NCBI GenBank assembly: GCA_964506645.1
Contig: CAZDML010000004.1
Location: 1-43,981 of the forward strand
Direction: 5' to 3'
Length of the DNA stretch: 43,981 nt
DNA from: an uncultured Elusimicrobia bacterium
GTDB taxonomy: Bacteria; Elusimicrobiota; Elusimicrobia; 2-01-FULL-59-12
The translations under genes were made by a program, and so were the position numbers. The notes under the pieces are model-generated. The model saw only the letters and a list, made by a program, of their open reading frames with translations, did not search any database and had not been told where the DNA came from. Within the stretch, counting starts at the first letter, position 1, and the number at the start of each line of letters is the position of its first letter. Below are positions 3,646 to 23,730 of the stretch, in pieces.

Positions 3646-6600
3646 TTACGCTGCAGTTTTGAGAAGAGAGGTGTTGTTCCTAGAGGTTTTGGATCGCTGG
3701 GTTCGGAAAAAGAGCGCTATCGCGCCGATCGCGCTTCCCAGAAGGACCGACGGCAATAGCCAGGGGAATACACGGCGGGTGTTAGGGGTCGATGAGGAGG
3801 ACGAAAGAGTTTCCTTTGATCCGGGTTTCCTTTTAACCAGGCTACGCAGGTAATGACCCGTGAGAGCGACTTGTTTGTAGCCGCTGTCCCAATTTTCGCT
3901 GACGGTGGGATTGAGACCGGAGTTTTTTTGAGCAGCTTGAAGTACGGCGCTTGTGAGACGATTCACGTCCGAAGACACCTGGCCGAACATGGCCCAGCCG
4001 GAGAAGATAAATCCGTTTTCACCCGCTTTCTTGTGATCGCTGTAGGGCGCGTTGGATCCGGTGATGTAGTTGGAGACTAGCGGGTTTGTTGTGCTGCCGT
4101 TCCACATGGTTGTGGTTAAGGTGCGGGACATGCGCAGGACATCGTCCGAAGTAAATGGACCAATGCCAGCTTCCCGCATGAAGAGCATCATCTCCACCCG
4201 ATTGGTGTGATCGGTATCCCAATCTTTGTCTGTGTTGCGGTCGTCTTTAATAAATTGGCCCTTGTCCCAGATCCATCCCTTCCCGGCAGGGGTCAGTCGC
4301 GCCTTAAACGCTCGGCCAATTTTTTCGGCGAGGGTTTTGTATGGGGTCTCCCGGGTTGCCTGATATAAAAAGGTTGCGATATCGCCCAGAAGCCAAGACT
4401 TATCGTTCCACTTCACGCCTTCGCCCCAGTCTTCCGGATCATGCTCTAGCCAGTCGGGATAGCGTGACGCATCGAGATTTAAGCGTCCCTCATCAACACC
4501 CGGCAGCACGCTACTGACAAAACGCACATACGCTTTGGCTTTAGCTGCGTATTTGGACTTGAGCGCCGGGGTTGTCATGATCATCGCGGCCGCACGGGCG
4601 ATCGGCTGGAGGGTTTGCAGCGTATAAACGTCCTCCGGTTTTCCAGAGGAAGCGTCCTTCCAGGCGGGATGTCCGTTCACGGTGGAAACCTTGGCGATCA
4701 TCGCATCGATTTCGTCCAACGCTTTTTGGAACTCCGCGCTGTCCTGCGTGGCTTCCACGGCAGAAAGCATGCCCATGAGCTGGATGCTCACCAGGTAATA
4801 CTGCTCGGCATCCGCGCTTTGAATCATTTCTTTTGTCTCTTGATAGGAGTCTTTTAAGACCTGCTGGTGCAGAGCGGTTGCCTGCGTTAACGACAATTCT
4901 CCGGAGGGTGTAGATTGGGCAGAAAGGTTGCGCGACAGGAGAAGCAGGAGAAGGAAGGGAATGATCGTCCCCGGTCTCCGGATGCTTCCCCCCGCCGCTT
5001 TCTGTTGAAGAGATTTGACGGAGATATAAATAATCGGCACCGTTCGCAAGGCTGTTGTGACCATGTGAAATCGGTTGGTACTGGCTTCTCCAATAAAGGA
5101 CAGGGACGCCACTGAATCGGTCCCGTCCAGCGCTTTGACCCGCAACTGTACAGAGAAATCTTGGGGATCTCTATGCGGTTGCATAACATTTAATACAACG
5201 GTCTGTGGCCCGTTCCGACCGTACCCTGAGGCGGTAAAGACAAGCGTATCCTTGGTGGCCGAGTCGCACGACAAAATAACAGGATCCGTCGGATCGCCCA
5301 AGCGCACCTCGATCCCCTTCACAACACTCCATCCGCGTGACCAGGATTCTTTCGCTTCGGGACGCTGCAGCATTTCTGCACGGACATGTTGACGGTCTTC
5401 GGCGCGATCAAACGACAATGACCCCAGCATGGGCATGGTTCCGGACAAAAATTTCATGAGATCCATCCAAAGCGCATCCTGCAAAGAAAAATCACCCGGG
5501 GTCGCCGTACCGATCACTCCATCGGATGTTTGTCTGTTTGTGGCATTTGTTTTTGCGTGTGTCACGATAGCACTAATCAACCCTGCAACCAAAGCTACTC
5601 CCAGTAGAAGAGGGCTTCCCATCCATGCCTCAAGAGGGTTATCTGGAATACGTAGACCTTCCGATCCAAAAATCGCCAGTAGCTGCGCTCCCCCGGGAAC
5701 AGCGATAGCAGCCATAGCCCACCATCCCCACGTCGTAGCACCTTCCAGCCAGCCTCTTTCGCGAAGATTGCGCAGATCTGCTGAAGTAACCGGTACTGGC
5801 TTGGCATTGCTTCCCTTATAAACACGAGGATGCACCCCACGCGAGCCATAGATCAGGCCACTCAACAAGACGGCGACACTTCCTACAAAAAAGGTCGCGA
5901 TCCCCGCGCTCTCTTCGCGGGATGTCCCTGTATCAAAAGGATGCTGATAGAAATACCCGTGCGTGAGGACCATGGGGAGTGCGATAAGCACGCCCTGAAA
6001 AAAGAGGCCCTGAACCATGGGGGCCAAGACGGTTTGGATAGTCGAGAGCGGTACGCCGCGTTTCATCAGCGGCTGATAGATCAGCCGGTCAAACCAGAAG
6101 CCAATCAGACCGCCTGTGGCGGTTCCTTGAGTTGTCGTGGAGGAATAGCGATCGCTTCGCAAGAGAGCCCGGGCTTCGGCATCGGCAATGACTGTGACGT
6201 CGGAATGCAAGCGAAGCACGGACGACGGTAGTTCAGTTGAAATAGGACCTTCCAGTGCTTTCTGCAGGGCGACGGCTTTTTTGGGGCCGCTCACGAGCTG
6301 CAAAATTTTCCGCGCATCCAGGATGGTTCCCAAACCAACGGTCAGTGCCCATTCTGGAACCAGGCTTGGATCGTTCCCGAAGAATTCCTGATTTTGAACA
6401 CGCGTTCGTGCTGCAATTTTCACAAGATCTGTTCGAGACTCAAAATGGGACCCGGGTTCACGAAACGCTAGATGTCCATTCTCGCCCATCCCTAATACGG
6501 CCAAATCAATGCCACCCAGACTTTTAATTAAGACTTCGTAAGCGGTTGCTTCGGCTGCTGCTGATTCAGCTTGGTCATTAAGCGTGTGGACATGCTCTGC

Positions 6601-8646
6601 GTTAAAACCAAGTTCTGGCTTTCGACTCTGCACATCCAGAAGCGGATCGGTTAGAACGCGTTTAGCATGGGCCGCAAAGCTTTGGTCCGCATAGGCGGCT
6701 GGAATCTGATAGTAGTTGTCCAAGAAAAAGAAATGCACATTGGAAAGGTCGAGAGGATGTTCTTCTAAAAGGCGAACGAGCTCTTGATACATTCCGCGCG
6801 ACGTGCGGTCGGCCGGCAGGAGCAGGTTGGCACGGCCCTTTTCCTGAAGATTTTTCTGGAGAGTGTCATACACGAATCGGGCAGCGGGCTCAGCGACGGC
6901 ATCACGGTCGGGCACACCGACCAAGTTGACGGGATAATCGTTTTCGTCTGCCGGCGCAACAATTGAGGAATTCGTTTGCGAAGGCGGAACCCAATGGTAT
7001 TTTGTGGTGTCGTATGTGTATCCTCGTTTGCCCGCTGCGGCTTCAATACGTTTCCAGGCCTCTGCATTGAGACCGTAAATCTTCAAGAGCGCACGCCGAT
7101 TCAGTTTAAAAATATCGTTCCAGGAAATTTTTCCAGCGCGTGCGAGCGAATTGATCAGACGTGTAATCGCGTGCTGCGTGTCTCCCCCATCGGTCTCACC
7201 TGGATAGAGAAAGTCGCTTCGCTGTATAAAGTCACCTGCGGCGAGCGCAGCCGCGCTGACCCATCGGTTGATATGCGGGACATAGCCGTGCTGCGCTGCG
7301 GCGTGGATAATATAAAGCTTGAAACGTGTGTTCAGGATCTCGTACGGTGCGCTCTCGAATAAATCTTTCCAAGACGTCCATCCTTTCTGTGTAAAGGTAC
7401 CCATGAGATCGTTGAGTGTCCGTTGCACAGCGCCTCGATCTTCCGTTCCCGCAGGTAAAAAATCCTTACGATTCACGCGATCATGCCTGCGCCTCTCGGT
7501 GGCGTGCTCCTCTATTTGTTTACGTAAAACGGCCAGTAGGACATTTGGAGGACTGGGTTTTGCAACCAGAGGGATATCGGGATAACGATCCAGGATAGGT
7601 TGGCTTAATTGCGTTTGCCCACTGCAGATGACCACCGGAAAATGAGGATTTGATGCTCGCAGGCTATCGATCAAATCTCCGCCGTGGCTGGAGATGAGAT
7701 GCGTATCGACAACGGCCGCAGCAAAACGACCGATGCCCAGTTTGAGTGCGTTCTCGACACTGTCTGCTTTTTCAACGACGTAGCCGTTTCTCTCTAAGAC
7801 CACTTCCCACAGGCGTGTAATATGTGCGTCGTCATCTACCACGAGAATTTTAGGACGAGAGGATAATTCTTTCTGAAGGGCGGTTCGAAAACGTCTCTCA
7901 TACGCAAATAATTTAGTCAGAGTATCGATGCGTGATTCTTGCAACATTTTCCGTAGTTGATCTGTGGGGATCTTTGGGATAAGCAACCGATGAGAAGCGA
8001 GGAGTTTGCTTGCTTGTCCGAAGCGTTCAATCATTTCAGCCGTCGCGATGCGGTGAATCAATGACGACGCATCAGGTTCTTGGAAGTGACCGCTATTTTC
8101 GTGAGTGATTTCTCGGCGTTCCTGAAATTCGGCCTGGGCTTGAGAAGCTTCGGTATTAAAAATAGCCGTATTGATCACGACGATCGGCATTCCATCGCTT
8201 TCACGGCGGTAATGGAAGGCAGGAATGTCGTGCTTAAGTTGATCGGTGTAGAGGACGATGGCCGTGGTCCCGTCTTTCTCGGTGGGGGACATGCGATTGG
8301 ACAGGGTCGTTAAATGCTCAGCGTTTTCTTTGAGTTCTTGCTTTGCCCACGCGTGAAATTGCGCGCCGTTGTCGAGGCCCGGAATTTTAAAGGTTCCGAT
8401 CCCTTCGTTGGGGAGAAGGCCAGAAAAGGTAGGCCGGATGTGCGGACTGGCTTCGGAAAGAATGTGCTGCATGCCCAGAACGCGAAGGATAAAGGCTTGA
8501 TCAGTAAAGAGAGATCCAGAGAGCCTCGTGGGCCCCGGCTTACAATCCGCCGGGGCGACAGCAGATAGCGCCGCTGTTGCCGGATCGGCAACCAAGGAGA
8601 CGGCGAGGACTAGCGCGACCCCGCGAGAGAAGTGACGGTTTTTCAT
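3646..8646 (-). CDS. Giant mosaic membrane protein (1666 aa): conserved leader, receiver domain, two alpha-CTD-like repeats, NagB-like domain, TM bundle, internal signal peptide, putative extracellular alpha/alpha domain, C-terminal TM and ..KTAA tail
   Basis: Receiver KILVVDDD..VVDTH..CSG..AKP (~7515-7860); 83-aa tandem repeats (~7017-7470); glucosamine-6-P deaminase fold with LDNY, GMGENGHLAFREPGS, ALTVGLGTIL (~6160-6935); several TMs (~5560-6120). Confidence 0.85.
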   Translation of the reverse strand: MKNRHFSRGVALVLAVSLVADPATAALSAVAPADCKPGPTRLSGSLFTDQAFILRVLGMQHILSEASPHIRPTFSGLLPNEGIGTFKIPGLDNGAQFHAWAKQELKENAEHLTTLSNRMSPTEKDGTTAIVLYTDQLKHDIPAFHYRRESDGMPIVVINTAIFNTEASQAQAEFQERREITHENSGHFQEPDASSLIHRIATAEMIERFGQASKLLASHRLLIPKIPTDQLRKMLQESRIDTLTKLFAYERRFRTALQKELSSRPKILVVDDDAHITRLWEVVLERNGYVVEKADSVENALKLGIGRFAAAVVDTHLISSHGGDLIDSLRASNPHFPVVICSGQTQLSQPILDRYPDIPLVAKPSPPNVLLAVLRKQIEEHATERRRHDRVNRKDFLPAGTEDRGAVQRTLNDLMGTFTQKGWTSWKDLFESAPYEILNTRFKLYIIHAAAQHGYVPHINRWVSAAALAAGDFIQRSDFLYPGETDGGDTQHAITRLINSLARAGKISWNDIFKLNRRALLKIYGLNAEAWKRIEAAAGKRGYTYDTTKYHWVPPSQTNSSIVAPADENDYPVNLVGVPDRDAVAEPAARFVYDTLQKNLQEKGRANLLLPADRTSRGMYQELVRLLEEHPLDLSNVHFFFLDNYYQIPAAYADQSFAAHAKRVLTDPLLDVQSRKPELGFNAEHVHTLNDQAESAAAEATAYEVLIKSLGGIDLAVLGMGENGHLAFREPGSHFESRTDLVKIAARTRVQNQEFFGNDPSLVPEWALTVGLGTILDARKILQLVSGPKKAVALQKALEGPISTELPSSVLRLHSDVTVIADAEARALLRSDRYSSTTTQGTATGGLIGFWFDRLIYQPLMKRGVPLSTIQTVLAPMVQGLFFQGVLIALPMVLTHGYFYQHPFDTGTSREESAGIATFFVGSVAVLLSGLIYGSRGVHPRVYKGSNAKPVPVTSADLRNLRERGWLEGATTWGWWAMAAIAVPGGAQLLAIFGSEGLRIPDNPLEAWMGSPLLLGVALVAGLISAIVTHAKTNATNRQTSDGVIGTATPGDFSLQDALWMDLMKFLSGTMPMLGSLSFDRAEDRQHVRAEMLQRPEAKESWSRGWSVVKGIEVRLGDPTDPVILSCDSATKDTLVFTASGYGRNGPQTVVLNVMQPHRDPQDFSVQLRVKALDGTDSVASLSFIGEASTNRFHMVTTALRTVPIIYISVKSLQQKAAGGSIRRPGTIIPFLLLLLLSRNLSAQSTPSGELSLTQATALHQQVLKDSYQETKEMIQSADAEQYYLVSIQLMGMLSAVEATQDSAEFQKALDEIDAMIAKVSTVNGHPAWKDASSGKPEDVYTLQTLQPIARAAAMIMTTPALKSKYAAKAKAYVRFVSSVLPGVDEGRLNLDASRYPDWLEHDPEDWGEGVKWNDKSWLLGDIATFLYQATRETPYKTLAEKIGRAFKARLTPAGKGWIWDKGQFIKDDRNTDKDWDTDHTNRVEMMLFMREAGIGPFTSDDVLRMSRTLTTTMWNGSTTNPLVSNYITGSNAPYSDHKKAGENGFIFSGWAMFGQVSSDVNRLTSAVLQAAQKNSGLNPTVSENWDSGYKQVALTGHYLRSLVKRKPGSKETLSSSSSTPNTRRVFPWLLPSVLLGSAIGAIALFFRTQRSKTSRNNTSLLKTAA

Positions 8647-8662
8647 AGGAAATGGATGAAAA

Positions 8663-8668
8663 AGTATA
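8663..8668 (-). promoter_or_regulatory. Putative -10 box TATACT 16 nt upstream of the 1666-aa ORF ATG
   Basis: Same hexamer, same TTT run and same 16-nt spacing as upstream of the 649-aa ORF; no SD. Confidence 0.45.
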
Positions 8669-8745
8669 ACGGGTTATCGACGGAGGATGAATAGAGCGTT
8701 CGGCTAAATGATGGGGTCTGTAAGACCCAAAGAAGACTGGGTCCT

Positions 8746-10155
8746 TTACGGATGGGAGAAGGAGATAACGGTTTCGATGTGGGAGGTGTGTGGGAATAGA
8801 TCGACAGGCTGGACGTCTTCCACGCGGTAGCCGCCGCGGGTTAAGAGCGCCGTGTCACGGGCCAGAGTTCCGGGATCGCAGGAGACGTAAATCAGCTGAT
8901 GCGGACGCAGCTGTAAGATCCCTTGAACGACTTCTTTGGAGCAGCCTGCGCGCGGCGGATTAACGACGGTGAGCTTGCCGGAAGCGGGCCGATCGATCCC
9001 GGAGCGCATGAAGCGTTCAGTGGGTTCGCCGATAAAGCGGGCATTGCGGATGTTGTTGAGGCGAGCATTCTTCTCGGCGTCGCGGGCGGCGCTTTCCACT
9101 TCTTCCACGCCCAGCACAGCCTTAAACTGGGGCGCCAGATAAAGCGCGATGCTGCCGACGCCGCAGTAGAGATCCAGAAGGAGATCCCCGCGCGCCGCCT
9201 TTTTCACCACGTCATACAGCACCTTCGCCTGTACGGTGTTGACCTGAAAAAAGGATCCCGGCGATAACAGAAACCGTAAAGTTCCGAGACGTTCTTCGAT
9301 CGTCTCTGCGCCGGCGATGGAGCGCCAGCGCCTGCCGAGAATGACATTGGTATGGGCCGGATTGATGTTCTGATGAATACCGGCCAGGGCCGGAAATTCG
9401 GTGACCAGCGTCTGGACGATTTCGCGTTCGTGGGGGAAATCGGGGGTGTACGTGACAAAGGCGAGCAGCGCCTGTGTCGCATTTTGTGTGGTTCGTACCA
9501 ACAGATGCCGCAGCCATCCGGTGCGACGGTCTTCGTCATAGGCTCGCACGCCATACCGTTCCAGGAGCGCCCGCGCCCGGTTTACAATGGCGACCGAAAG
9601 CTCGGGCTGCACCAGACAATCCTCGATCGGCATAATGTCGTGCGATCCCGGCGCATAAAAACCTGTGACCAGTCGCTTCCCATCCCAGCCCACCGGCTGT
9701 TGCACCTTGTTGCGGTACCTCCAAGGATCCTTCATTCCGATCGTCGGGTTCACGCGAACGCCTTTTACGCCGCCAATGCGCTCAAGGGTTTCACGGACAA
9801 GCTCGGTTTTAGCGCGGAGCTGAGCATCGTAGGTTAGGTGCTGCCACGTACATCCGCCGCAGAAGAGGGATTGCTGTTTATTTAGTTGGAAGTGGTAGGG
9901 ACAGGCCGGTGTAATACGTTCTGGCGACTGCTCGATGACACGGACGGGATACGCACGGGCAAAACGATCGCGGGTTTCGGTAATTTCTACTTCGAGTGTA
10001 TCCCCCGGAGCGGCGTAGGGAACAAAGAGGACGCCCTCATCCGTACGGGCGACGCCATCACCACCCAGCGAGAGCCGCTCAATGGTGACGGTGCGCCGCG
10101 AACCGATCTTAAGGAGTTTGTTGCGAGAATCCACAGGATTACCCGTAAATTCCAA
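8746..10155 (-). CDS. rlmD: 23S rRNA (uracil-C5)-methyltransferase, RlmD/RumA family
   Basis: TRAM N-domain, CPYH..CGGCTWQH Fe-S motif, SFFQVN, DLYCGVG, NPPRAG, catalytic YVSCDP and DLFPHTSHIE. The called TTG start lies in a repeat element, so the real start is probably slightly downstream (e.g. GTG 10134). Confidence 0.92.
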   Translation of the reverse strand: MEFTGNPVDSRNKLLKIGSRRTVTIERLSLGGDGVARTDEGVLFVPYAAPGDTLEVEITETRDRFARAYPVRVIEQSPERITPACPYHFQLNKQQSLFCGGCTWQHLTYDAQLRAKTELVRETLERIGGVKGVRVNPTIGMKDPWRYRNKVQQPVGWDGKRLVTGFYAPGSHDIMPIEDCLVQPELSVAIVNRARALLERYGVRAYDEDRRTGWLRHLLVRTTQNATQALLAFVTYTPDFPHEREIVQTLVTEFPALAGIHQNINPAHTNVILGRRWRSIAGAETIEERLGTLRFLLSPGSFFQVNTVQAKVLYDVVKKAARGDLLLDLYCGVGSIALYLAPQFKAVLGVEEVESAARDAEKNARLNNIRNARFIGEPTERFMRSGIDRPASGKLTVVNPPRAGCSKEVVQGILQLRPHQLIYVSCDPGTLARDTALLTRGGYRVEDVQPVDLFPHTSHIETVISFSHP

Positions 10156-10271
10156 TCATCAAATTCCAAGCTCCAAATAAGCTCCAATAATTAAACATCT
10201 AAACAGGTTTTGTTTTTGTATTTGATGATTATTTGTTTATTTGGTTATTGGATTTTGGTGATTGGAGTTTG
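10148..10271. repeat. Heptamer-built imperfect inverted-repeat element, copy 1
   Basis: Left arm ttccaat-catcaaa-ttccaag-ctccaaa-(taag)-ctccaat..; right arm ..(ttta)-tttggtt-attggat-tttggtg-attggag. Same architecture at 28752 and 32967. Confidence 0.85.
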
Positions 10272-10691
10272 TGAACCATTGTCCTGGCTCAGACGATGCA
10301 GAGTGTCCTGCACATCCGGCAACAGGGCGCTCTTGGGATATTTTTCCTGAAAGGCATTTAATGCGGCGATCGCTTCCGCGCGTTTCCCTTGGCGGGCCTG
10401 TTCCACCGCTTCGCGGTAGACCTTTACTTCGGCGACGTCCACGGCCTGCGATCCTTTCTTTTCCTTCCAATAGAGAGCCGATTTTTCCTGCTTCGCGCCG
10501 CGAAGACCCGCAACACTGGCGGAGCCGGCCGTCGGTTTATTGGCTCGTTGTGCGGTGTGGTCGAGCTTCACCTGAAGTTTTTGCAAGTAATCATTTAAAT
10601 TTTCTACGGGCTGCGCGGTTTCTGCCATCGCGCTTGCGCCGAGTATTGCGGTAAGCCCCAACACCACCAGCCAGTTTGTTCTACGATTCAT
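10245..10691 (-). CDS. Exported hypothetical protein with coiled coil and one TPR-like hairpin (CpoB/YbgF-like C-terminus)
   Basis: AGGAGG RBS before ATG 10691 (MNRRTNWLVVLGLTAILGASAMA = Sec signal); YREAVEQARQGKRAEAIAALNAFQEKYPKSALLPD resembles an outer-membrane-type TPR. Confidence 0.75.
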   Translation of the reverse strand: MNRRTNWLVVLGLTAILGASAMAETAQPVENLNDYLQKLQVKLDHTAQRANKPTAGSASVAGLRGAKQEKSALYWKEKKGSQAVDVAEVKVYREAVEQARQGKRAEAIAALNAFQEKYPKSALLPDVQDTLHRLSQDNGSQTPITKIQ

Positions 10692-10730
10692 ATGACCTCC
10701 TGTTGGATGCTGCTGTTTTTGAAAAATCCC

Positions 10731-10759
10731 TTGCACGAAAAGTCTTTTGGCGTTATACA
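10731..10759 (+). promoter_or_regulatory. Sigma70 promoter TTGCAC-N17-TATACA
   Basis: Hexamers at 10731-10736 and 10754-10759, upstream of the 19-aa sORF. Confidence 0.65.
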
Positions 10760-10798
10760 CAAAGTGTCGTACAAAAAAAACGGGAGGTGAGACCGCTC

Positions 10799-13900: not shown

Positions 13901-13928
13901 AGTATAGGGGGTTTTGAGCAGCAGACAA
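13901..13928 (-). promoter_or_regulatory. Putative promoter TTGTCT-N16-TATACT, 16 nt upstream of ATG 13884
   Basis: Hexamers read on the minus strand. Confidence 0.5.
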
Positions 13929-14049
13929 ATAGAGCCAAAGTCTATAAATAGGGAGAAAAAGACCCTAAAAAGCCTGGGCCCTTAGGCCTGTATTTTTGCC
14001 CTTCCGATCCATAGATCCACCGACGAGAAGTCGATAGACTTTAGAACGC

Positions 14050-17000
14050 ATGAAATCCCACCTTTTCACACGAATTATTGCGGCCGTTTTGTGCCTTGCG
14101 ATGGGGCAAGAACCTGCAGCACAAGCAGCGCAATGGGCAACGGCCAATGAGCAACGGGCTACACATTGCGCATCGCGCATGGCCCATCGCGACGTTTCTC
14201 CTTTTTCCTCCCAAGCCTTGGTGGGCTGCCTCATCGCAGGCTTTGTCGGCTTTCATGCGCTTCACCAGGGGCATGCCGAGGCTATGCAACTTCGTATCAA
14301 TGCTGGGACCTTGCTGGGGATTTTAACGGGTTCAGCCGTCCTGGGCATTATGAAGTCCGGTGACAGTACCCCTCCTCCTATCGCTCTACAGATTCAGTAC
14401 CTTTCCACGGCGCCTCCCCCGATCTATCAAGACGCGATTCGACATTTTTTTGATGAAGAGGATTACCTTAGTCTTCGCGAAAGCGTACGACTCTCGGGTG
14501 GCCCGGACAATTTGGATGGCTATCGAGTAGCGCTCTTTATAAAAACGGTGCAAAGTGCAGAAATAGCCATTGTTTCTGAAGTCCGCTATGAAGCTATTCA
14601 CACCGTTACAGGAAAAACACATAAAGGGAAATTCGCCCTGCACTCGTCCTGGTTGGACAACCCGGAAGATCTACAGCAGGAGCTGTTAACTCTTGAACGA
14701 CTCCGCAATGACTCGCCCGACTTGTTCGAGAGCATTCCCGCACTCTATACCGTTGCTAGGATTTTGATCGATAGAAATCAACCGATCATTTTCGGAACGA
14801 CGGACTGGGTTCCGGTCGAAGATATTAATTTCCGTCTGAACCCATCGGGAACGCATCTAGAGCCCTACATCACTTATTTGGATCAGCCCTCCGATTCCTT
14901 ATCCCCCGAAGACGCTGATTGGGTGACAAGAGAAATCGCCCGCCTCTTAATTTCCACGGCATTAACTGGAACTACTCTGGTCCCGTCACTCAATACCGGC
15001 ATGTTTGCGCTAGAGCGGCGATCGGGGGATAGGCCTAAAGTCTGGCTTGTCGGAGGAACTCCGCTCAGAGAAGAAGCGATTGAGTCTGCTGTCGGGGCAC
15101 TCGCAGAGCAATTTTTAATGCTTCTGGGTCTTCGACTCTATGATGCCGAAGAGCATCGAGCGAAGAACATGGATACAGGGTTACCCACGCACCCGATTTT
15201 TACCCCCGAACAGTTGCTGGCCGGTTTCCATGCGATGCTCATAGATAAAGTAGGTGCAGTTTCCGGCATGAAATTATTCATCGCCTTTGTCGCTCAGCTG
15301 GGATACAGCATTGAGCGCCTCAACACATTAGAAGAATATACCGGCTTCACCCCCGAAGCACTGACGGAGCGTTTAACAGCCTATTTACACACTCTTCATC
15401 CCAGGGCCATCGTTGCAAAGTCTCCCTGGGGCCAACTCTACGGAGAACTGAATGAAGGCAAAGAGCATCTTCAGACTCTTCTGAAAAAAGAGGGTCTTCA
15501 GATCCTGCTTCGGGCTTACCCGCAGATCCAAGAACTAATCGATACCGCGCGTTTTGCTGACCTGAAAGTTCTCATCGAAGACATCATTGCGCCGGAGCAG
15601 GAAACAACGATTTTGTTCGAAGCGCCGTTCATCCAGTCCCTGAAATATCTTCGACAAATCCAATTTCTAAGAAAAGAGGATGCGGTTCCATTTGTTCGAG
15701 ATGTTTTCAAAGCCATCGTGGGCCAGTTTGTAAACGAACATCAGATTGGTTTTGTGGCAGGCCAATCCGAAGCGATTGCTTTGGCTGTGGAACAGCTTCA
15801 AGCGCTTTATGAGGAAGTTTGGGGGTGGACCGATGATTTGCAAACCTTCATGGTGGAACTTGTGGCTGCGCGCGAGTGGAGTGTCGAAGAAGCCAGCCAC
15901 AAACTAAAACGTCTTCTGGTTGCACTCACCGAGCGGCACCGTACTTACAACCAAAGCATCCGTCTGCGAAAACCCGGCTTTGAGAACAAGCCCTATGCCA
16001 TGACAGGGGGAAGTTCTGAGCGAGCCGTGGTGCGGTGGCCCTACGTGGGTATTGAGGGACAACAGCCCTTGTCCCATACGGGTGTTTGGCCACAAGCTCA
16101 GGCGCTTTTGGACTTTCTGAGCACGCCAACCACGAAATTGCCGAAGTATGCCGACATCATTGTGATTTTTGGCAATGACCTGCTGGCCTCCTCCCGAAAA
16201 GGCGCGGAACTCTATAAGCAATACACAGCGGCGGCCAAAAAACTAGGACGTCCTTTCCCGAAAATATTCGTGACGGGCGGCAGCGGCCGGGACACGCCGG
16301 CGCATTGGGTGAAAGGGGAAGCTCACGCGCATCAGCAAATTCTCCGTGAGCACGCTATTTCACCAGGGCGCATTTTCCGGGAATCAAGAGCAACGAATAC
16401 AGAAGACAATGCCATTGCCGCAGCCAATTTCTTCCTTCAGCGCGGATATACCGAGGAGGATCCTGTCGATACGGTGGTTGTCATTCAAAGCCCTGCCTCG
16501 ACCCTGCGTGCACAGTTGACGCTCGAAAAGTGGGCTGGAACATTGGCCCGGCGGGTCGTGGGTGTTGCCCCTTTTGATCCCGATATCGAGCGGTCCGACC
16601 CGGCCACACGGCTGCGGCTCCTGGAGACCGCCGTCGGTGAAATTGGCCGTCTTCTGGATTATCCGGGCAAAGGCTATTTCCGTGCTGTCGAGATTCCGGA
16701 TGAGATTCTTCAATTAACGTTAGATGTCCAACGCTCACTGCTCACCGATCCTTCTCTGCGGCCAGAAACGCGTACGGCACTGATTCGTTGGGGAGATGTG
16801 ATGAGTGTAGAACTCGTGCGCAGGGCTTTGCCGGCGGGCCGCAGCCCTCAGCACTTTCCGCCTCCGGCTCCATTCGAACCTACGACGCGAATCCTAACAG
16901 CTTCTGGCAATTCCAATATGAGTTATTTGAACCGTCATACGTCGCAATGGTCTTGGATGCGTAGGGAATTGTGGCCCACCATGATTCAAGCCAAAGTCGC

Positions 17001-20000
17001 GGCTGGACGAAAACAGATCGAGGTTATTATTCTTGGGGCCTCCACCGGGGAAGAACTGGCTCGTGCGTATCATGAAATCATTTTGGCTTTGCAGGACCAA
17101 CATGAAGACCCGCGGCAATGGATTCTTCGAATCCAAGGATGGGAAATCGATGCAGGGACGGCAGCCGCTGCCGCGCGGCGCTTAGCGGGCGAAGAACCCT
17201 TTGTGTATGACTTGCCCGAGCGTGCCGACAAAGCGCCTCTTCACCTGGATTATGCTCAGCAATGCGTGAAGACGCTCAATAGTTTTCTGGGTGTGCCTGG
17301 CCATTCTTTAGAAGTGCATCAGGCAGATTTCCAGACAGCACATTTGGATGAGCTCTATCCAGAGACGGACCTCGTTATCGAAAATCAAGTCTTCTATCAG
17401 TTGGGTCTGACGAATGAGTCCATAGCGTTTTATGAACGCTTAGCCCGATGGGCTCGACCCTGGATGGTTGGGGGCGAGTTCTATTATTTGCATCAGTACG
17501 GAGGACGCCCTGTGCGCGAAGTTATGCATGAGACCCCTCTATCGGCGGGAGAACGTACGCATTTAGTCAGCTCCCCTTTAGTTATATCTCCATCAACCGT
17601 CTCTCCCATCCCAAGCATCAAAGTGGTGGCCATCGATTGGAACAGCACGCTTTATTCAGAAAGTAAGCAAACCCTACGGAAGGGAGCACGGGAATTCTTA
17701 GAAGGTCTCGGTGATCGTGGCATCACGGCTTACGTGTGGAGCAATAACCCGGACGTCTGGAATCATGTGATCCGATTCGACCTGACGGGTTTGCTCCAGA
17801 AGCCTGCTTGGATTATTAAGGATAAACGGGCCCAGTTAACGCAGTTGATAGAGCATCTTCGGGTTCCTCCCGATCAGATTGTGGCGATGGGTGATGAGGC
17901 GGCGGATATTCTCGTGGCCAAACGCTTGGGAACAAAAGCCATTCTCATTCGAAGTCGCAGCAGCGTGGATACGTCGCTTCTCGTAGGAAAAATGGTGCCG
18001 GATGCCGTCATCCCCAATCTGTATCATCCCGACAATATCGCAGATCTCATCGCCGGTGGCGTAAACCCCGACCCGGCGGGCCGTCGCTGGACCTCCTTTT
18101 TTGTGCCGCTGCAAGGAAAAATCATTATGGCCATTCCTCAAGACGGCCTTACGGGGGATGAACTGGAACGCTATGTTCGCCGTGTCGCGCCATTTCGGGA
18201 AACAAGACAATTTGTCTGGCCTTTAATGCCCGTGATGATTGTGCCCACGCTCGCCATGGCCGGGCTGCTCAGCGTCCTGCCCTATTCCGACCCTCATTCT
18301 CTGACGGCTAAAACGCTCATTTTTCTTGCTGCGGCCTCGTTCGGCGCTACGGGCGCGGTTGTGAGTGCTTGGCTCTTTCGTCTCGCCCACAGCAAGGTCT
18401 ATCACGTATCCGGACAAGAGCAACATGCGTATATTGGCGCACCTGTTCCACCGACCGCAGACGAAAAACCTCTTCTTTTTAAACGCGGACTGGTGTATGC
18501 CTTGGCGCTGGTGCTTCCTCTCTTGGGTGCTGTGGCGAGCGTCCTTTTGGGTGCGAATGCAGGAGTCGCCGCTGGACTTGCGGTCACATCCCTGGGTGCT
18601 CCCTGGGCCATACACAGCTATCGCAACAATAAGCCGTTCGGGCAGATCTTTGCGGGTCATCCTGTCTGGAAGGAATTGTTGATGGCGCACCCGTCGGAAG
18701 ACTTCCCATCGCTTTATCAAGAATTCTTGAACTTTTTGCGCTTCCTGGGACAGGAAAATCATCGTACTGATAAACCCACAACTCTCTTGCGAGACGCCCA
18801 CCATGTATTAAATCGTTGGAACATCAAACGGGTGGCAAATATTGCCATTCCTGAAGTGGTGCGACCCGATTTTGAAATGCTGAATGCGGGTGTACGACAG
18901 TCGCTTGCTGGCGTGGGCTGGGCTTCTCGAGAAGATATTCTGCAACGCCTTCGCTCCCTGGCTCATGCAGCGCCTCGAAATGAGACAGTCCTTTCCTTGG
19001 GGAGCAGTGATGGTGAGGGACTTCCTTTGCTGGAACTGGTCTTGTCTTATCGTGAAGTCACTCTTGTGGATTTGGACGATGTGAGCTTGCAGCGCGGTAT
19101 GGAGCGGCTACGTCGTGATCTTGTGCAAGATAAGCTTGGGTTAAACGCAGAACAGATAACAGCCATTCTCGCTCGTGTTCATGTGATTCGTGAAGATATT
19201 TCGGGAATTGTCGAAGAATTTACGGGTCACATAGATCATATTCTTCGCGAAGAAACGTCAGATGCCCGCCTTGTGGATGCTTTGGTTACATACCTTCGCT
19301 CCTATGGATCACGCTCTTCTTGGCCCGCACCTGCGTTCGGCGCCCACGATCTTGTTATTTGTCCACTCGTTATGACGCAGCTGCAGTCGGCCTTACCTCA
19401 CGTGATGCAAAAGCAGATCGATGCACGTATTTCTCATTTATCTCGAGAGCAACTCTTGGCCCTGATGGGTGCCGTGAATGAATTTACAGATGCGGTCATG
19501 AAGGCCCACCTGGCACACCTCGAGCAATGGGTAAAACCCACCGGGCATCTCTACTGGTCGGATACGACGGACGAGGTGGAATTTGATATTCGCGGACAAC
19601 AGCAAGCTCTCCCGATGATATCAATGGAGGCGTTCAAAGCTGCGGCCTCCAAGCATTTTGATGTTCGTCCCCTGGATCTCTGGACGTGGATTCAGACGAT
19701 TCCGACCGTCTCCATTTTGGGTCAGCTCTTCTTTGTTGAAGCGTTGGCAATGCGGCCGCATCGTGTGATCTCGGCAGGCATGCGAGTGAGAGACCGCCGA
19801 GGCCAGGAACGTGAGATTGATGAGGTTCGCGAGGATGGCAAGGTTCATCTCACAGGGGATGCCCCTCATATCTACATAAGTATGGGACTTCTGGAGATTG
19901 TTCCTGTTATCTCGCAAGAGGCCAAGAGTGAGGACACAGAGGAAGATGTAAAGCAGGGCACCCCCAGGAATTCCTATTTCTTGCTGCTTGTGCTTTTCTT

Positions 20001-23000
20001 GTTTACTGGCGGTTTGGCCCGTAGTGCGAAAGCGCAGGATGTTTCTATGCCGCATTCGTTCGTGACAGAGATGGTCTGGAGTGATTTTCCGTGGATTTCA
20101 GCATTGCTCGCGGTTGTCATCCCTGCGGCGGCCTGGGTGATATGGAAATACGTTCCTCGGTTTTGGGTGCCAGCCCCTTGGGTCGCTCAGATGGATTCTG
20201 CGGAGACCCGCTGGGAAGGTTGGCAGCAGATCCCTGCAATAGAACCAGAGACCGATGAAGTCGACGCACTCTATCACTTTTATTATTGGAGTCGTCACCC
20301 CGACTGGCAATCCTTGGCACCTCAAGATTGGAAGCAGTTAAAAGGGTTTGTCGAAAGCGCTCAAAAGCGTCAGGCTGCAGAGGGTTTCCCGGTTCTGGTT
20401 CTCCCGCCGGATCTGCTGGCGACGCTGCTCGCACAGCCGGAGGGCCTGGCCGAGCTCCTGCGCCGCGTTCATCCTTACACCCTCCAGTCGCTCGAGCATG
20501 CCGACTCGCCGGTGTCGCGCTTCACCATGCATGAGGGCGTGTACTACCAGCTTTTTGCAGAAAAATTACTTGGACGTCTGCCGGAAGGGGGCGTGAATCT
20601 TATAAATATTGATCCGCATTCGGACGCGATTTACCAGGCCCACGAGTATATGTCGAATCGCTTTTTGCGGGGCACAAATCAGGAGAAGGCCACGCAGCGG
20701 CTGCACTATAAGGGCGTCACAGATTTTAATTGGATCGCCGCCGCGGTCGGGGATGGGCTGGTGCGCGAAGCCGTGACCATCCCGCCGAAGCAAACGATCT
20801 GGACCGTGGGTCATATTCGCCGCCACGCCGAAGGGTGGCCGATGGTTATGGAGACCGATATCAGCGATCTCGGTAAAGCAGCTGAGTTTACTGAGGAGGC
20901 CCCGCTCTGGGTCACCGTGGATATGGATATGTTCAGCTTGCGCTCTGAATTTGTCCCTCAGCAGACGATTTATCATCATGGCGAACGGACGGCACGCGCG
21001 ATCATCGAGCTAATGGTTGCAGATCTTGGGTTGCATCGAAAGAAGATCGATCGCTTGTCGACGGCGGTCTCTCCAACCTACATCTCACTAAAGGCTACCC
21101 CTAAACAGATCGACATGTACCAGAGGGTTACCGAGGAAGTGCTTTCACCGCTGCTTCGGCCCAAGGCGACGGCAGCCCCAACTCCGATGGGGTCGTCCCC
21201 CGTACTCAAGGTACTCTTGGAAGCGTTGGGACTTAGCGATGCGGTCATTGCCAACTCGGAAAATGTGCAAGAGACGGGAGCGCCCTATACCCTCAAGCGG
21301 TTGCAGCTTCCCGTGCGATCGAGTCAGCATGGCGTCCCCCAGGGCCTGGATATTCTTCGACATGAGTTGACACTGCATTACCTAGGCCCCCTGAGTATGG
21401 ACTTGGTGTATTCTAAAGAGGGCACGTTGGTGGCCATTTCGCCGACCCCCAGCACATCCCTTCCTAAAAAACTGTTTTACATCGATGCGACGCCGTACCA
21501 GTTCACTTTTCCGCAATCCTCGGAGGCACGCGCAGAGTGGGAGAAATTTGTAGCGCAATACAAACGGGACCAGGATGTCGTGCGTGTGTATCTGTCCTAC
21601 TTCAAACGATCCAGCGGATTAGAGCCACGACGGCTCAATAGCCTGGCCCCACTCGCGCACGCCCATTACGATGCTGCCGATAAAAAATGGGAGGTCGCCG
21701 GCATAAACATCCATTTATTCGATATTACGCGCTGGCTTTCGGCCGCTGCGAAACTCGGACGCCGTATCGTTTTGCCTGTCTTTCCTACGGTGTATCATCC
21801 GCAGTCCACCCAACTATCAGAATCCGACCGCAACTACTACAAGGCGTTGCACGAAGAGGTGTCTTATAAAAAGGACCAGCGTATTCTGGTTGTCGGTCCC
21901 GGATCCGGACTGGAAGTCTGGGCGTTAGCCCAGAAAACAGAGCTTCCAATTTCTGTCATTGGCATCAATCCGTTGGAAGTCGCCAACGTGAAAGCGCTCG
22001 CTGCGCTCGGGGGCTTTTCCGTTAATATTCTCGTTGGCGATAACGTCATCGATGAAAACGGCCATCCTCGATTCCCGGGAATAGAATTCGATGTCATCGT
22101 CTGGAACATGCCGGCGCTGGAACATCCGCTAACCTACGACTTAACGCATAAGCAGTTGCATCAGTATCACGATGGCGATTTGGGCGGCGAAACCCTCTCC
22201 CGTTTTGGCATTGGACTTCTAAAAGTTCTCGCTCCACAAGGTTACTCTCTTATATGGAACCGCTTGCCGCGCGGTACAGAAAATCCTGCACAGGTGATCC
22301 GAGACTACCTGCATCTGAAGGTAGAGGATTCACAGACGACTTCATTTGAAGTGGAGGAATTAGATCGCGGTGTCTATCGGATTTCCCGCGCGCCTTCGGT
22401 CGCACAGCGCGTGGGAATGGGCATGCCGCACCATCTCTACAACCTTTACCATCCGGAGGCTGTACTGACGCGTTCGGGGGATTCCTCCATGAAACCAAAA
22501 CATTCGCGGCGGCCCTGGGGTGTGATTGTTCTGGGCTTAGCTTCGGGTTTTGCAGGCGGGATGTCCCTTCTACTGGCGCAGAACGGCACGCTGCATGAGA
22601 TGTATCCTGAGGTTCTTCTTTTTACGCTCATCAGTGGTGTCGTGACAAGCCTTGTGTGGGCCTCCCTGCAGGAAATGCATGCTACGAAAAGTGAGTCGTA
22701 TTCTTCACGTCTGAGTATCTACTTAGCGCTGTCGGTTTTGTGTGTTGGCAGTTGTATGCCTCTATCCCTGGGTATTTTTACCGGTGTCTTTATTCATTTG
22801 TTTATTTCGCTCAGTCTTCGCTCCTCCGATGATGCGGTAAAGACGCCGGAAGCGGTTTTGTCGCGACTCTGGCCCGCCTTTTTTGCGTCTTTAGAATCTC
22901 AGCAGCCGGAGGAGCGTGAGCGCGCGGAAGCTGCCTTGATCGATGGGTTGTTCGTTTTTGCCATGCATCCACGTCTCTATCTACGGCGCATTATGACGCT

Positions 23001-23730
23001 GGCCAAACAAGAGCGGGCCACGACGCCTCTATCCGAAGATCATGAACTACGTTGGCTCGCCAAAGAGGCCCAAGGAGCATTGCGCTCCATGGGCGTTGCC
23101 GTTGTCCTGAGCGACGGGCAGGACACCCACGGTTTCTGGCATCTGTCCCCTCGTTTGTATCGTGTGCTGCGTACGGATGCTGCATCTGCCCAGATGGATG
23201 GAAAGCCGCTTCGCATCGTATACGCCCACCATCTCGACAGACGCCCGCGCGCGCAAGACCCGATGTATCTTGATAAGAAGGAGAACGTGCTTTATGTGAA
23301 CATTGATTACTTTGTGGCATTAGCAAAGAAGTTGACGGCGCTCCAAGATCTTCCTGAATTTACGAATGAATTGATCGCCTCATCGGTGCACCATGAATTC
23401 GCCATCCCCTTGTCCGAATATCATTTCGAGCCTCTGCCGTTAGAGGAGGCGCTGTTTTCTCCGGACCGTTCTACGTCCAAGGGACGTTGGTGGAACACGT
23501 TCTTAAAGGGCCTCTTTTTTGGCCTATTTTTTGTTGTTCCTGCGTTGCTCGATGCGCAAACGATCCGTCCGAATGTGGATGCTATGACGCTGGCTTCCAA
23601 AATCCATGGGGTTTCTTCTTCGGGATACTCGGGGGTGTCCTCCTGGACCGTAGACGATCTTTTCCATTCCAAACCCAAAGGGCGGATGGTCACGCCCATC
23701 GATCATGAGCGACTGCGCCGCGCCGCGTAA
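14050..23730 (+). CDS. Giant mosaic membrane protein (3226 aa): conserved leader, possible kinase-like region, DUF218/YdcF, CheR-like methyltransferase, HAD-like, TM bundle, second SAM-MTase, internal signal peptide, UPF0489-like, HemK/MTS-like MTase, TM bundle, internal signal peptide, ..RRAA tail
   Basis: Uninterrupted 9.7-kb ORF. DUF218 IIVIFG..IFVTGGSG..GEA..ESRATNTEDNA (~16150-16540); LGASTGEE (~17035); IDWNSTL..MGDEAADI (~17617-18030); LSLGSSDG..VDLD (~18980-19760); IDPHSD..FNWIAAAV..VDMDMF (~20520-21140); VVGPGSG..DVIVWNMP (~21770-22380). Confidence 0.88.
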   Translation: MKSHLFTRIIAAVLCLAMGQEPAAQAAQWATANEQRATHCASRMAHRDVSPFSSQALVGCLIAGFVGFHALHQGHAEAMQLRINAGTLLGILTGSAVLGIMKSGDSTPPPIALQIQYLSTAPPPIYQDAIRHFFDEEDYLSLRESVRLSGGPDNLDGYRVALFIKTVQSAEIAIVSEVRYEAIHTVTGKTHKGKFALHSSWLDNPEDLQQELLTLERLRNDSPDLFESIPALYTVARILIDRNQPIIFGTTDWVPVEDINFRLNPSGTHLEPYITYLDQPSDSLSPEDADWVTREIARLLISTALTGTTLVPSLNTGMFALERRSGDRPKVWLVGGTPLREEAIESAVGALAEQFLMLLGLRLYDAEEHRAKNMDTGLPTHPIFTPEQLLAGFHAMLIDKVGAVSGMKLFIAFVAQLGYSIERLNTLEEYTGFTPEALTERLTAYLHTLHPRAIVAKSPWGQLYGELNEGKEHLQTLLKKEGLQILLRAYPQIQELIDTARFADLKVLIEDIIAPEQETTILFEAPFIQSLKYLRQIQFLRKEDAVPFVRDVFKAIVGQFVNEHQIGFVAGQSEAIALAVEQLQALYEEVWGWTDDLQTFMVELVAAREWSVEEASHKLKRLLVALTERHRTYNQSIRLRKPGFENKPYAMTGGSSERAVVRWPYVGIEGQQPLSHTGVWPQAQALLDFLSTPTTKLPKYADIIVIFGNDLLASSRKGAELYKQYTAAAKKLGRPFPKIFVTGGSGRDTPAHWVKGEAHAHQQILREHAISPGRIFRESRATNTEDNAIAAANFFLQRGYTEEDPVDTVVVIQSPASTLRAQLTLEKWAGTLARRVVGVAPFDPDIERSDPATRLRLLETAVGEIGRLLDYPGKGYFRAVEIPDEILQLTLDVQRSLLTDPSLRPETRTALIRWGDVMSVELVRRALPAGRSPQHFPPPAPFEPTTRILTASGNSNMSYLNRHTSQWSWMRRELWPTMIQAKVAAGRKQIEVIILGASTGEELARAYHEIILALQDQHEDPRQWILRIQGWEIDAGTAAAAARRLAGEEPFVYDLPERADKAPLHLDYAQQCVKTLNSFLGVPGHSLEVHQADFQTAHLDELYPETDLVIENQVFYQLGLTNESIAFYERLARWARPWMVGGEFYYLHQYGGRPVREVMHETPLSAGERTHLVSSPLVISPSTVSPIPSIKVVAIDWNSTLYSESKQTLRKGAREFLEGLGDRGITAYVWSNNPDVWNHVIRFDLTGLLQKPAWIIKDKRAQLTQLIEHLRVPPDQIVAMGDEAADILVAKRLGTKAILIRSRSSVDTSLLVGKMVPDAVIPNLYHPDNIADLIAGGVNPDPAGRRWTSFFVPLQGKIIMAIPQDGLTGDELERYVRRVAPFRETRQFVWPLMPVMIVPTLAMAGLLSVLPYSDPHSLTAKTLIFLAAASFGATGAVVSAWLFRLAHSKVYHVSGQEQHAYIGAPVPPTADEKPLLFKRGLVYALALVLPLLGAVASVLLGANAGVAAGLAVTSLGAPWAIHSYRNNKPFGQIFAGHPVWKELLMAHPSEDFPSLYQEFLNFLRFLGQENHRTDKPTTLLRDAHHVLNRWNIKRVANIAIPEVVRPDFEMLNAGVRQSLAGVGWASREDILQRLRSLAHAAPRNETVLSLGSSDGEGLPLLELVLSYREVTLVDLDDVSLQRGMERLRRDLVQDKLGLNAEQITAILARVHVIREDISGIVEEFTGHIDHILREETSDARLVDALVTYLRSYGSRSSWPAPAFGAHDLVICPLVMTQLQSALPHVMQKQIDARISHLSREQLLALMGAVNEFTDAVMKAHLAHLEQWVKPTGHLYWSDTTDEVEFDIRGQQQALPMISMEAFKAAASKHFDVRPLDLWTWIQTIPTVSILGQLFFVEALAMRPHRVISAGMRVRDRRGQEREIDEVREDGKVHLTGDAPHIYISMGLLEIVPVISQEAKSEDTEEDVKQGTPRNSYFLLLVLFLFTGGLARSAKAQDVSMPHSFVTEMVWSDFPWISALLAVVIPAAAWVIWKYVPRFWVPAPWVAQMDSAETRWEGWQQIPAIEPETDEVDALYHFYYWSRHPDWQSLAPQDWKQLKGFVESAQKRQAAEGFPVLVLPPDLLATLLAQPEGLAELLRRVHPYTLQSLEHADSPVSRFTMHEGVYYQLFAEKLLGRLPEGGVNLINIDPHSDAIYQAHEYMSNRFLRGTNQEKATQRLHYKGVTDFNWIAAAVGDGLVREAVTIPPKQTIWTVGHIRRHAEGWPMVMETDISDLGKAAEFTEEAPLWVTVDMDMFSLRSEFVPQQTIYHHGERTARAIIELMVADLGLHRKKIDRLSTAVSPTYISLKATPKQIDMYQRVTEEVLSPLLRPKATAAPTPMGSSPVLKVLLEALGLSDAVIANSENVQETGAPYTLKRLQLPVRSSQHGVPQGLDILRHELTLHYLGPLSMDLVYSKEGTLVAISPTPSTSLPKKLFYIDATPYQFTFPQSSEARAEWEKFVAQYKRDQDVVRVYLSYFKRSSGLEPRRLNSLAPLAHAHYDAADKKWEVAGINIHLFDITRWLSAAAKLGRRIVLPVFPTVYHPQSTQLSESDRNYYKALHEEVSYKKDQRILVVGPGSGLEVWALAQKTELPISVIGINPLEVANVKALAALGGFSVNILVGDNVIDENGHPRFPGIEFDVIVWNMPALEHPLTYDLTHKQLHQYHDGDLGGETLSRFGIGLLKVLAPQGYSLIWNRLPRGTENPAQVIRDYLHLKVEDSQTTSFEVEELDRGVYRISRAPSVAQRVGMGMPHHLYNLYHPEAVLTRSGDSSMKPKHSRRPWGVIVLGLASGFAGGMSLLLAQNGTLHEMYPEVLLFTLISGVVTSLVWASLQEMHATKSESYSSRLSIYLALSVLCVGSCMPLSLGIFTGVFIHLFISLSLRSSDDAVKTPEAVLSRLWPAFFASLESQQPEERERAEAALIDGLFVFAMHPRLYLRRIMTLAKQERATTPLSEDHELRWLAKEAQGALRSMGVAVVLSDGQDTHGFWHLSPRLYRVLRTDAASAQMDGKPLRIVYAHHLDRRPRAQDPMYLDKKENVLYVNIDYFVALAKKLTALQDLPEFTNELIASSVHHEFAIPLSEYHFEPLPLEEALFSPDRSTSKGRWWNTFLKGLFFGLFFVVPALLDAQTIRPNVDAMTLASKIHGVSSSGYSGVSSWTVDDLFHSKPKGRMVTPIDHERLRRAA
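14128..14199. repeat. In-frame heptamer-periodic imperfect palindrome inside the giant ORF
   Basis: gcaatgg-gcaacgg-ccaatga-gcaacgg / attgcgc-atcgcgc-atggccc-atcgcga; GCGCAATG (14128) is the reverse complement of CATTGCGC (14164). Confidence 0.6.

Follow-up and report, generated by a model that had tools for sequence, protein, structure and literature searches.

Why should three proteins that otherwise have nothing in common begin with the same peptide? The question is raised by a 43,981-nt stretch of DNA from an uncultured Elusimicrobia bacterium (contig CAZDML010000004.1; the window), on which three open reading frames (ORFs), here called ORF1, ORF2 and ORF3, open with similar leaders. ORF2 and ORF3 are divergently transcribed neighbors with 165 nt between them (Table 1). 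An original prediction, made from this DNA alone, had proposed that the leader is a dedicated recognition tag that addresses unrelated cargo to one machine. The explanation that we favor, and to which we give about even weight, is that ORF1-3 are a lineage-restricted family built on a conserved promoter and leader module, with bodies of independent origin. Such a family is defined by its ends and not by its body.

Residues 1-26 of the three products align without gaps. M1, F6, R8, A11, V13, L14, P22, A23 and A26 are invariant, position 21 is D or E, and the pairwise identities are 13/26, 10/26 and 12/26. When residues were shuffled only within the n-, h- and c-regions, so that signal peptide architecture was kept, the 8 invariant columns other than Met were reached in 1 of 200,000 trials (P ~5e-6). 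A degenerate DNA pattern of the invariant positions, run over the window with up to 2 mismatches, picks out the starts of these three ORFs and nothing else (0 expected), and a hidden Markov model (HMM) of the leader scores the ordinary signal peptides of the window at 2.2 bits or less. The gapless alignment with fixed residues that had been noticed at 8646(-), 13884(-) and 14050(+) is confirmed by the coordinates, the invariant columns and the shuffle. In an all-against-all BLASTP comparison at permissive settings, residues 1-27 (1-54 for ORF1 and ORF2) hold the only similarity among the three proteins, in agreement with the earlier statement that nothing is shared beyond the N-terminal region. 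At the level of sequence, the bodies of ORF1-3 are unrelated.

The leaders do not appear to have been copied recently. At identical residues, codons match in 4/12, 4/9 and 4/12 cases, compared with 3.7, 3.0 and 3.7 expected from codon usage. As the codons match no more than codon usage predicts, the synonymous sites are saturated and the divergence is old, and it follows that the peptide is held by selection; recent gene conversion of the leaders is ruled out by the same test. We therefore regard it as very improbable that the resemblance has no function, being either chance among Ala/Leu-rich signal peptides or the trace of a recent 5′-end duplication or gene conversion. Signal peptides are indeed compositionally biased, and the three genes are neighbors, a setting that favors recombination, but the shuffle that preserved the regions makes chance a poor account, the saturated synonymous sites mean that the event was not recent, and similarity persists in the non-coding flanks though the bodies cannot be aligned.

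Those flanks, which the original prediction had missed, form the second conserved element. The DNA upstream of ORF1 and ORF2 aligns over ~88 nt in the register of the ATG, with ~70% alignable (z 6.8; 0/300 dinucleotide shuffles), and a shorter promoter-proximal block is shared by ORF3. The flank of ORF1 holds a hairpin (GGACCCAG..TGGGTC) directly after the rlmD stop codon and ends with TATACTTTT, with the -10-like hexamer TATACT 22 nt before the ATG. The copy of this hairpin between ORF2 and ORF3 has no gene before it that it could terminate. As a further shared element, GACCC/GGGTC palindromes in front of family genes were considered; they are no commoner than in shuffles in either of the two organisms with family-like genes. 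The second of these organisms is represented by contig L003, described below, where the flanks of two genes (L3a and L3c) are also similar to one another (z 6.5). Across both organisms a -10-like TA[ATG]A[CA]T precedes the start codon by 12-22 nt, without a Shine-Dalgarno sequence, in 6/7 family-like genes as opposed to 4/26 others. Because the hexamer also occurs in those 4 non-family genes, it probably represents no more than the promoter of the individual gene, the 5′ leader being very short or absent, which suggests that leaderless or near-leaderless mRNAs are frequent in the organisms of the window and of L003. The non-family genes that carry the hexamer near the ATG are hydrolase, Sel1, tmk and NamZ genes of the window and L003.

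Which kind of signal is the leader? Its n-region is basic, with K or R at positions 2, 4 and 8, and is followed by a hydrophobic core of 12 residues (9-20) and a c-region [DE]-P-A-x-x-A, in which P22 supplies the helix breaker and T, V or A at position 24 and A at position 26 in all three proteins fit the -3/-1 rule. By a rough insertion-energy sum, the cores resemble the signal peptides of three other window genes (10245-10760, 11440-11892 and 40795-42867) and are unlike the true transmembrane (TM) helices of ORF1. As far as sequence can tell, then, the leader has every feature of a generic Sec/signal peptidase I (SPase I) signal. Pfam and NCBIfam searches with the N-terminal 95-105 residues of ORF1-3, at E values up to 10, returned nothing relevant and no sorting-signal model. 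Several specialized signals were considered and rejected. A twin-arginine translocation (Tat) signal does not fit a single Arg at position 8, with no S/T-R-R-x-F-L-K twin arginine and no Pfam/NCBIfam match. A lipoprotein signal (SPase II) does not fit a leader that lacks Cys in ORF1 and that in ORF2 and ORF3 has unaligned Cys residues outside the lipobox context L-[AS]-[GA]-C. The type IV prepilin pattern G-F-T-L-I-E is absent, and the F-T-x-[QE]-A-L box lies 45-50 residues in, without Gly at -1 and with an acidic or amide residue at +4; the prepilin models N_methyl/TIGR02532 do not match the N-termini of ORF1-3 at E up to 10. An extended signal peptide region (ESPR) is likewise excluded, the whole leader being only 26 aa, with no ~25-aa extension, no ESPR match and no beta-barrel or TPS domains. 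At the other end of the proteins, there are no Pfam/NCBIfam matches to the C-terminal sorting signals PEP-CTERM, LPXTG, GlyGly-CTERM or the C-terminal domain of type IX secretion system (T9SS) substrates; a TM helix with a basic cluster occurs at the C-terminus of ORF1 only, without a known motif, and ORF2 has no C-terminal TM helix. ESPR and YSIRK signal peptides also keep fixed-position residues. The argument of the original prediction that generic Sec signals do not keep fixed positions thus has exceptions, among which are also the leaders of the erp genes (PMC10016077).

Beyond the leader, a second motif is present in all three proteins. The short hydrophobic stretch that was said to follow it is evident in ORF2 and ORF3 but weak in ORF1 (rough insertion energy +10.6), so that this part of the earlier description stands for the motif and for two of the three stretches. 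Together, these elements would make up a 5′ module of four parts: ~90-100 nt of promoter-proximal DNA, in which a -10-like TAnACT box lies 15-22 nt from the ATG and a Shine-Dalgarno sequence is lacking; a Sec-type signal peptide 26 residues long; a spacer that varies between 20 and 25 residues; and an F-[ST]-x-[QE]-A-[LF] box at the head of a second, brief hydrophobic stretch. We propose that the flank acts as a common promoter through which ORF1-3 would be co-regulated, and that the leader brings the N-terminus to the Sec translocon and would be cut after A26. Behind the module, the bodies would have been assembled independently through domain accretion and gene fusion. The in-register conservation of the leader would then reflect common descent of the module and purifying selection, the latter, on our proposal, imposed by steps of start-up, targeting and handling that are common to all members.

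The bodies themselves pose a puzzle. The receiver (REC) domain of ORF1 is intact by sequence, with the acidic pocket, phospho-acceptor Asp and conserved Lys all in place, and its NagB-type domain is a glucosamine-6-phosphate deaminase (TIGR00502, 182 bits; PDB 2bkv, 1e-37) that keeps the active-site motif ..NGH..F.EP... Judged from their domain matches, the receiver, NagB, HAD, DUF218 and methyltransferase domains of ORF1 and ORF3 are cytoplasm-type activities. The distal part of ORF1 may differ. The predicted model of aa 1243-1625 is of low confidence (pLDDT 49.7, pTM 0.57), and its structural neighbors are the (alpha/alpha)6 enzymes GH76, PL5, GH88 and GH9 (TM ~0.45-0.54, E >0.01), a mere hint of an exported-type module like those of carbohydrate-active enzymes. 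ORF2 consists of the leader and an all-alpha orphan body; no fold was assigned to it, as a search with an AlphaFold model of pLDDT 46 is meaningless. The unannotated pieces of ORF1 and ORF3 have no match in Pfam, and ORF3 has none in a PDB sequence search. On the reading that we favor, the outcome would be membrane-threaded proteins in which cytoplasm-type modules (REC, NagB, HAD, methyltransferases) alternate with exported ones.

Such cargo invites a different reading, in which the leader is never cut. Leader and second hydrophobic stretch would form an in-out-in hairpin that pins cytoplasmic enzyme arrays to the inner membrane, and the conserved leader positions would serve helix packing or insertion. 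This arrangement would place REC, NagB, HAD and methyltransferase domains in the cytoplasm, able to work, and the clear second stretch right after the box in ORF2 and ORF3 is what it calls for. We nevertheless think an uncleaved tether unlikely: both hydrophobic stretches span only ~12-17 residues and score as signal peptides and not as TM helices, the second one lacks hydrophobicity in ORF1, the conserved P-A-x-x-A has the appearance of a cleavage site, and ORF2, together with L3a, L3c and the ORF2 homolog P0003 described below, has no other TM helix and resembles a plain exported protein.

The conserved module at the front has a counterpart at the back, also missed by the original prediction. 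ORF1-3 all end in a basic tail and Ala-Ala followed by a TAA stop codon (..SLLKTAA, ..RRIDTAA and ..ERLRRAA), with no DNA similarity among the 3′ ends of the three genes past GCN-GCN-TAA. A C-terminal Ala-Ala occurs in 5/7 family-like proteins compared with 0/24 neighbors in the window and L003 (Fisher p 1.2e-4). The C-terminal non-polar degrons ssrA (..LAA) and RseA (..VAA) are read by ClpXP/FtsH in the cytoplasm and by Tsp/Prc in the periplasm. The Ala-Ala-COOH ends of ORF1-3 after a basic stretch are like these degrons in sequence only; unlike them, the tails are genetically encoded and have T, R, K or S, not Leu, as the third-last residue. They also resemble the ligands of PDZ proteases.

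Similar features recur inside the giant proteins, the third element that had gone unnoticed. Inside ORF1 and ORF3 lie segments that resemble signal peptides and have Gln as the next residue: ..LLLLLLSRNLSA-QS.. in ORF1, and ..GGLARSAKA-QD.. and ..VVPALLDA-QT.. in ORF3. The junction in ORF1 resembles the C-tail of a family protein joined to a new signal peptide, suggesting that ORF1 may be a fusion of two family genes, and the internal segments as a whole suggest either gene fusion or a polyprotein-like organization. A stronger version would take the leader together with the F-x-x-[QE]-A-[LIF] box and a basic C-terminal ..Ala-Ala as an undescribed bipartite signature, carried by the substrates of a single sorting or processing route in a deep, barely sampled lineage. 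The giant members would be membrane-threaded polyproteins cut at internal junctions (for example ..SLQQKAA / GGSIRRPG-TIIPFLLLLLLSRNLSA / QSTP..) into separately localized enzymes, in the way that signal peptidase cuts the polyproteins of flaviviruses. We consider the joint claim quite improbable.

Whether the family reaches beyond this contig was examined by several searches. Exact look-ups of ORF1, ORF2 and ORF3 in a contig index found nothing on record, and a homology search with the entire ORF3 returned itself only. A leader profile compared with 5.8 billion proteins gave 207 word-sharing candidates, none at E <=10, a weak negative given that the search also missed the window's own proteins, which score 100-116 bits locally. 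A strict DNA pattern of the leader had one match each in GTDB species genomes and JGI metagenomes, both the FtsX-like C-terminus of the same Gemmatimonadetes metagenome-assembled genome, and was dismissed as chance. Given that the lineage is nearly unsampled, the absence of further leader copies is weak evidence.

ORF2 yielded more. Among 1.84 billion representatives it has two weak homologs only, P0003 (E 1.5e-4) and P0004 (E 2.5e-4); a profile of ORF2 with these homologs recovers only itself in the 5.8-billion index and nothing in viral contigs. The three proteins share the motifs DW[LM] and G[PY]HLR[AN][DE] and an alignable C-tail, ..[IL]T[IV][FY]H..R[KR]S..[IL][DL][TK]AA. In P0003, the linker ..AGMEE[PR].. 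appears four times at the domain boundaries. P0004 carries the box SPFLTEALAP, ends in ..LLKAA and is encoded on L003, a 14.6-kb contig of another organism. Its two companions there, an orphan of 427 aa and a double-GGDEF protein of 1047 aa, have unrelated bodies, yet both have a signal peptide, DFTREAIPPVLL or SFFTQAIPPALV ~20 residues on, and an end in ..RFASAA or ..TVLQSA; in the GGDEF protein the box is in frame only with a GTG start at 8839, not with the called start at 8917. In all three L003 proteins, a signal peptide is thus combined with an F-x-T-[QE]-A-[IL]-[PA]-P box and an ..AA or ..SA end. Going by these sequence features, at least two organisms probably share a family whose marks are a signal peptide, an F-x-x-[QE]-A-[LIF] box and a basic ..AA tail.

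These comparisons bear on the proposal of a dedicated tag, in which the leader (F6, R8, [DE]21-P22-A23), the box and the basic ..Ala-Ala end are recognition elements of a specialized machine, either a peptidase dedicated to signal or C-terminal processing, or a route by which enzyme-carrying proteins reach the cell surface or another cell. The leader is the most conserved part of otherwise unlike proteins and is under peptide-level selection, its HMM ignores ordinary signal peptides, and the N-terminal box and C-terminal tail occur together in two or three organisms and in none of the neighboring proteins. There is also precedent for the cargo, as long Omnitrophota proteins with signal peptides and TM helices are reported to carry metabolic and regulatory domains with a predicted extracellular location (10.1101/2023.11.21.568195; 10.64898/2026.06.07.730766). 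Set against this, the leader obeys generic SPase I rules, L003 keeps only the box and tail while its leaders are not conserved, and receiver, GGDEF, NagB and SAM-methyltransferase domains need cytoplasmic substrates; the intact receiver and NagB domains in particular argue against simple export of the whole protein. The expected co-occurrence with a secretion system or peptidase was not found, neither the 44-kb window nor the 14.6-kb L003 containing such genes or any other candidate machine. Nor did a further bearer of the leader turn up when GTDB species genomes, JGI metagenomes and the 5.8-billion-protein index were searched, weak negatives as these are, so that of the proposed HMM test one half came out as predicted, the model passing over the window's ordinary signal peptides, and the other yielded no further members. 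What survives of the original prediction is a specific, in-register leader on unrelated bodies under peptide-level selection; that it marks cargo for a machine of its own we consider a minority possibility, in view of its generic Sec/SPase I features and cytoplasm-type cargo.

Several points weigh against the promoter and leader module as well. Signal peptides normally evolve faster than mature proteins, and a leader that has outlasted all similarity of the bodies therefore hints at constraint beyond generic Sec targeting. If the leader of ORF1 is cleaved and its second stretch is not a TM helix, REC and NagB would lie outside the cytoplasm, where they make little functional sense. The topology itself comes from crude hydropathy, and the fusion history from a single suggestive junction, that of ORF1. 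Further, the window's leader HMM does not score the proteins of L003 and L004, the L003 leaders are unlike one another, and the link to L003 consists of weak body homology, a short motif generalized after the sequences had been seen, and the tail. The reach of the family is small, with three certain members on one contig.

The setting of the three genes is unremarkable. The window has 54% G+C and ordinary bacterial chromosome content, including exbD, tonB, an alpha/beta hydrolase gene, rlmD, a Sel1-repeat protein gene, thrC, tatD, metG, holB and tmk; it has one tRNA-Glu gene only and no rRNA within the 43,981 nt, and it contains no phage genes. Of 10 window proteins examined, nine form singleton clusters at 90% identity in a set of ~15 billion proteins, and the tenth, the thrC product, shares its cluster only with two 49-residue fragments. 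The same organism is otherwise on record only as short Logan contigs, and the source lineage is almost unsampled.

Only 47 nt separate the ORF3 stop codon from three glycosyltransferase genes on the same strand. These are possibly co-transcribed with ORF3, and their products might glycosylate exported parts of leader-family proteins. An orphan 657-aa protein (38685-40658(-)) starts with a signal peptide, contains two more segments of that kind (..ALVLAGAGSMALG-QD.. and ..LLLFPSAAFA-DG..) and ends in ..GFSA; it could be distantly related to the family, though it does not match the leader HMM. The C-terminus of a beta-helix (pectate-lyase-like) protein (40795-42867(-)) matches FlgD_ig and CHU_C (T9SS-type) weakly and below threshold, a hint as to the type of cell envelope and secretion. 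A BrnA-type antitoxin gene (37924-38268(-)) adjoins tmk, and a BrnT/BrnA pair stands at the same position in Logan contigs with an identical tmk product (L006 794-1334).

Table 1. Coordinates of ORF1-3, their shared elements and related loci. Positions are those of the window unless a contig or residue range (aa) is given.
Feature	Position	Strand	Description
ORF1	3646-8646	-	1666 aa; leader, unknown region, then the domains below; basic tail
ORF1 REC domain	aa 267-347		
ORF1 NagB-type deaminase	aa 576-840		
ORF1 TM helices	aa 880-1031		four
ORF1 internal signal-peptide-like segment	aa 1227-1242		
ORF1 possible (alpha/alpha)6 module	aa 1243-1625		
ORF1 distal TM helix	aa 1629-1648		
ORF2	11935-13884	-	649 aa
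ORF3	14050-23730	+	3226 aa; several TM clusters, two internal signal-peptide-like segments, tail ending RRAA-COOH
ORF3 DUF218 domain	aa 702-842		
ORF3 HAD phosphatase	aa 1190-1325		
ORF3 HemK-like methyltransferase	aa 2600-2750		
ORF1 leader	8569-8646	-	MKNRHFSRGVALVLAVSLVADPATAA
ORF2 leader	13807-13884	-	MTNKLFLRCAAVVLAFCLGFEPAVAA
ORF3 leader	14050-14127	+	MKSHLFTRIIAAVLCLAMGQEPAAQA
ORF1 second motif	8491-8508	-	FTDQAF, aa 47-52
ORF2 second motif	13723-13740	-	TESEAL, aa 49-54
ORF3 second motif	14203-14220	+	FSSQAL, aa 52-57
ORF1 5′ flank	8647-8746	-	entire 100-nt intergenic region from rlmD stop codon to ATG
ORF2 5′ flank	13885-13984	-	within the 165-nt divergent intergenic region shared with ORF3
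ORF3 promoter-proximal block	14014-14042	+	28 nt, ATCCACCGACGAGAAGTCGATAGACTTT; alignable to ORF1 flank, z 3.6
ORF1 C-terminal tail	3649-3702	-	TQRSKTSRNNTSLLKTAA
ORF2 C-terminal tail	11938-11973	-	ARKSKRRIDTAA
ORF3 C-terminal tail	23698-23727	+	IDHERLRRAA
ORF1 internal junction	4897-5013	-	SLQQKAA-GGSIRRPG-TIIPFLLLLLLSRNLSA-QSTP
ORF3 internal signal-peptide-like segment	19957-20094	+	..SYFLLLVLFLFTGGLARSAKA-QD.., then SFVTEMV and TM helix
ORF3 second internal signal-peptide-like segment	23479-23574	+	..FLKGLFFGLFFVVPALLDA-QT..
Glycosyltransferase genes	23777-28233	+	family-2 glycosyltransferase, then two PMT/GT-C glycosyltransferases
P0003	L004 104-2539	+	tandem duplication of ORF2-like domain
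L003 clustered trio, orphan	L003 3123-4406	-	
L003 clustered trio, ORF2-like protein	L003 6553-7737	+	
L003 clustered trio, double-GGDEF protein	L003 8839-11982	+	

How does this family compare with systems already known? Fixed-position signals across unrelated, often very large cargo are familiar from ESPR (autotransporters/TpsA), YSIRK-G/S, KxYKxGKxW and Tat. The leader of ORF1-3 differs from all of these in having none of their motifs and no extension before the signal peptide, and the ORF1-3 family is confined to one poorly sampled lineage, unlike the families with motif-bearing signal peptides.

In their cargo, ORF1-3 are closest to the long proteins of Omnitrophota, which join a signal peptide, many TM helices and methyltransferase, receiver or sugar-metabolism domains in one ORF (10.1101/2023.11.21.568195; 10.64898/2026.06.07.730766). 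Both present the same puzzle, that of cytoplasm-type domains predicted to lie outside, but the Omnitrophota proteins exceed 10,000 aa and often contain SecA-like or C39 domains. A text search of the two reports found no mention of a conserved leader family or of the word "leader". If the module works as proposed, it would bear on a problem raised for these giant proteins, that of targeting and membrane arrangement in long bacterial proteins with both cytoplasm-type and exported domains. Its N- and C-terminal signatures are simple search keys for the remaining family in a future complete genome of the lineage, and name the residues to mutate.

In architecture, the likeness is to the erp (OspE/F-related, "upstream homology box") genes of Borrelia burgdorferi, in which one promoter, leader and sorting sequence is joined to many unrelated bodies that are co-expressed; the conserved part comprises the promoter/operator, the leader peptide and the first mature residues (PMC10016077). 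ORF1-3 likewise combine conserved upstream DNA and a conserved leader with unrelated bodies, and the likeness is one of architecture only. Erp proteins are small lipoproteins encoded at allelic sites on cp32 prophages, whereas ORF1-3 have neither lipobox nor prophage, and their bodies are multi-domain membrane proteins of 650-3226 aa with a C-terminal Ala-Ala tail. If the module works as proposed, it would be a second independent case, outside spirochaete prophages, of one promoter-plus-leader cassette joined to unrelated bodies.

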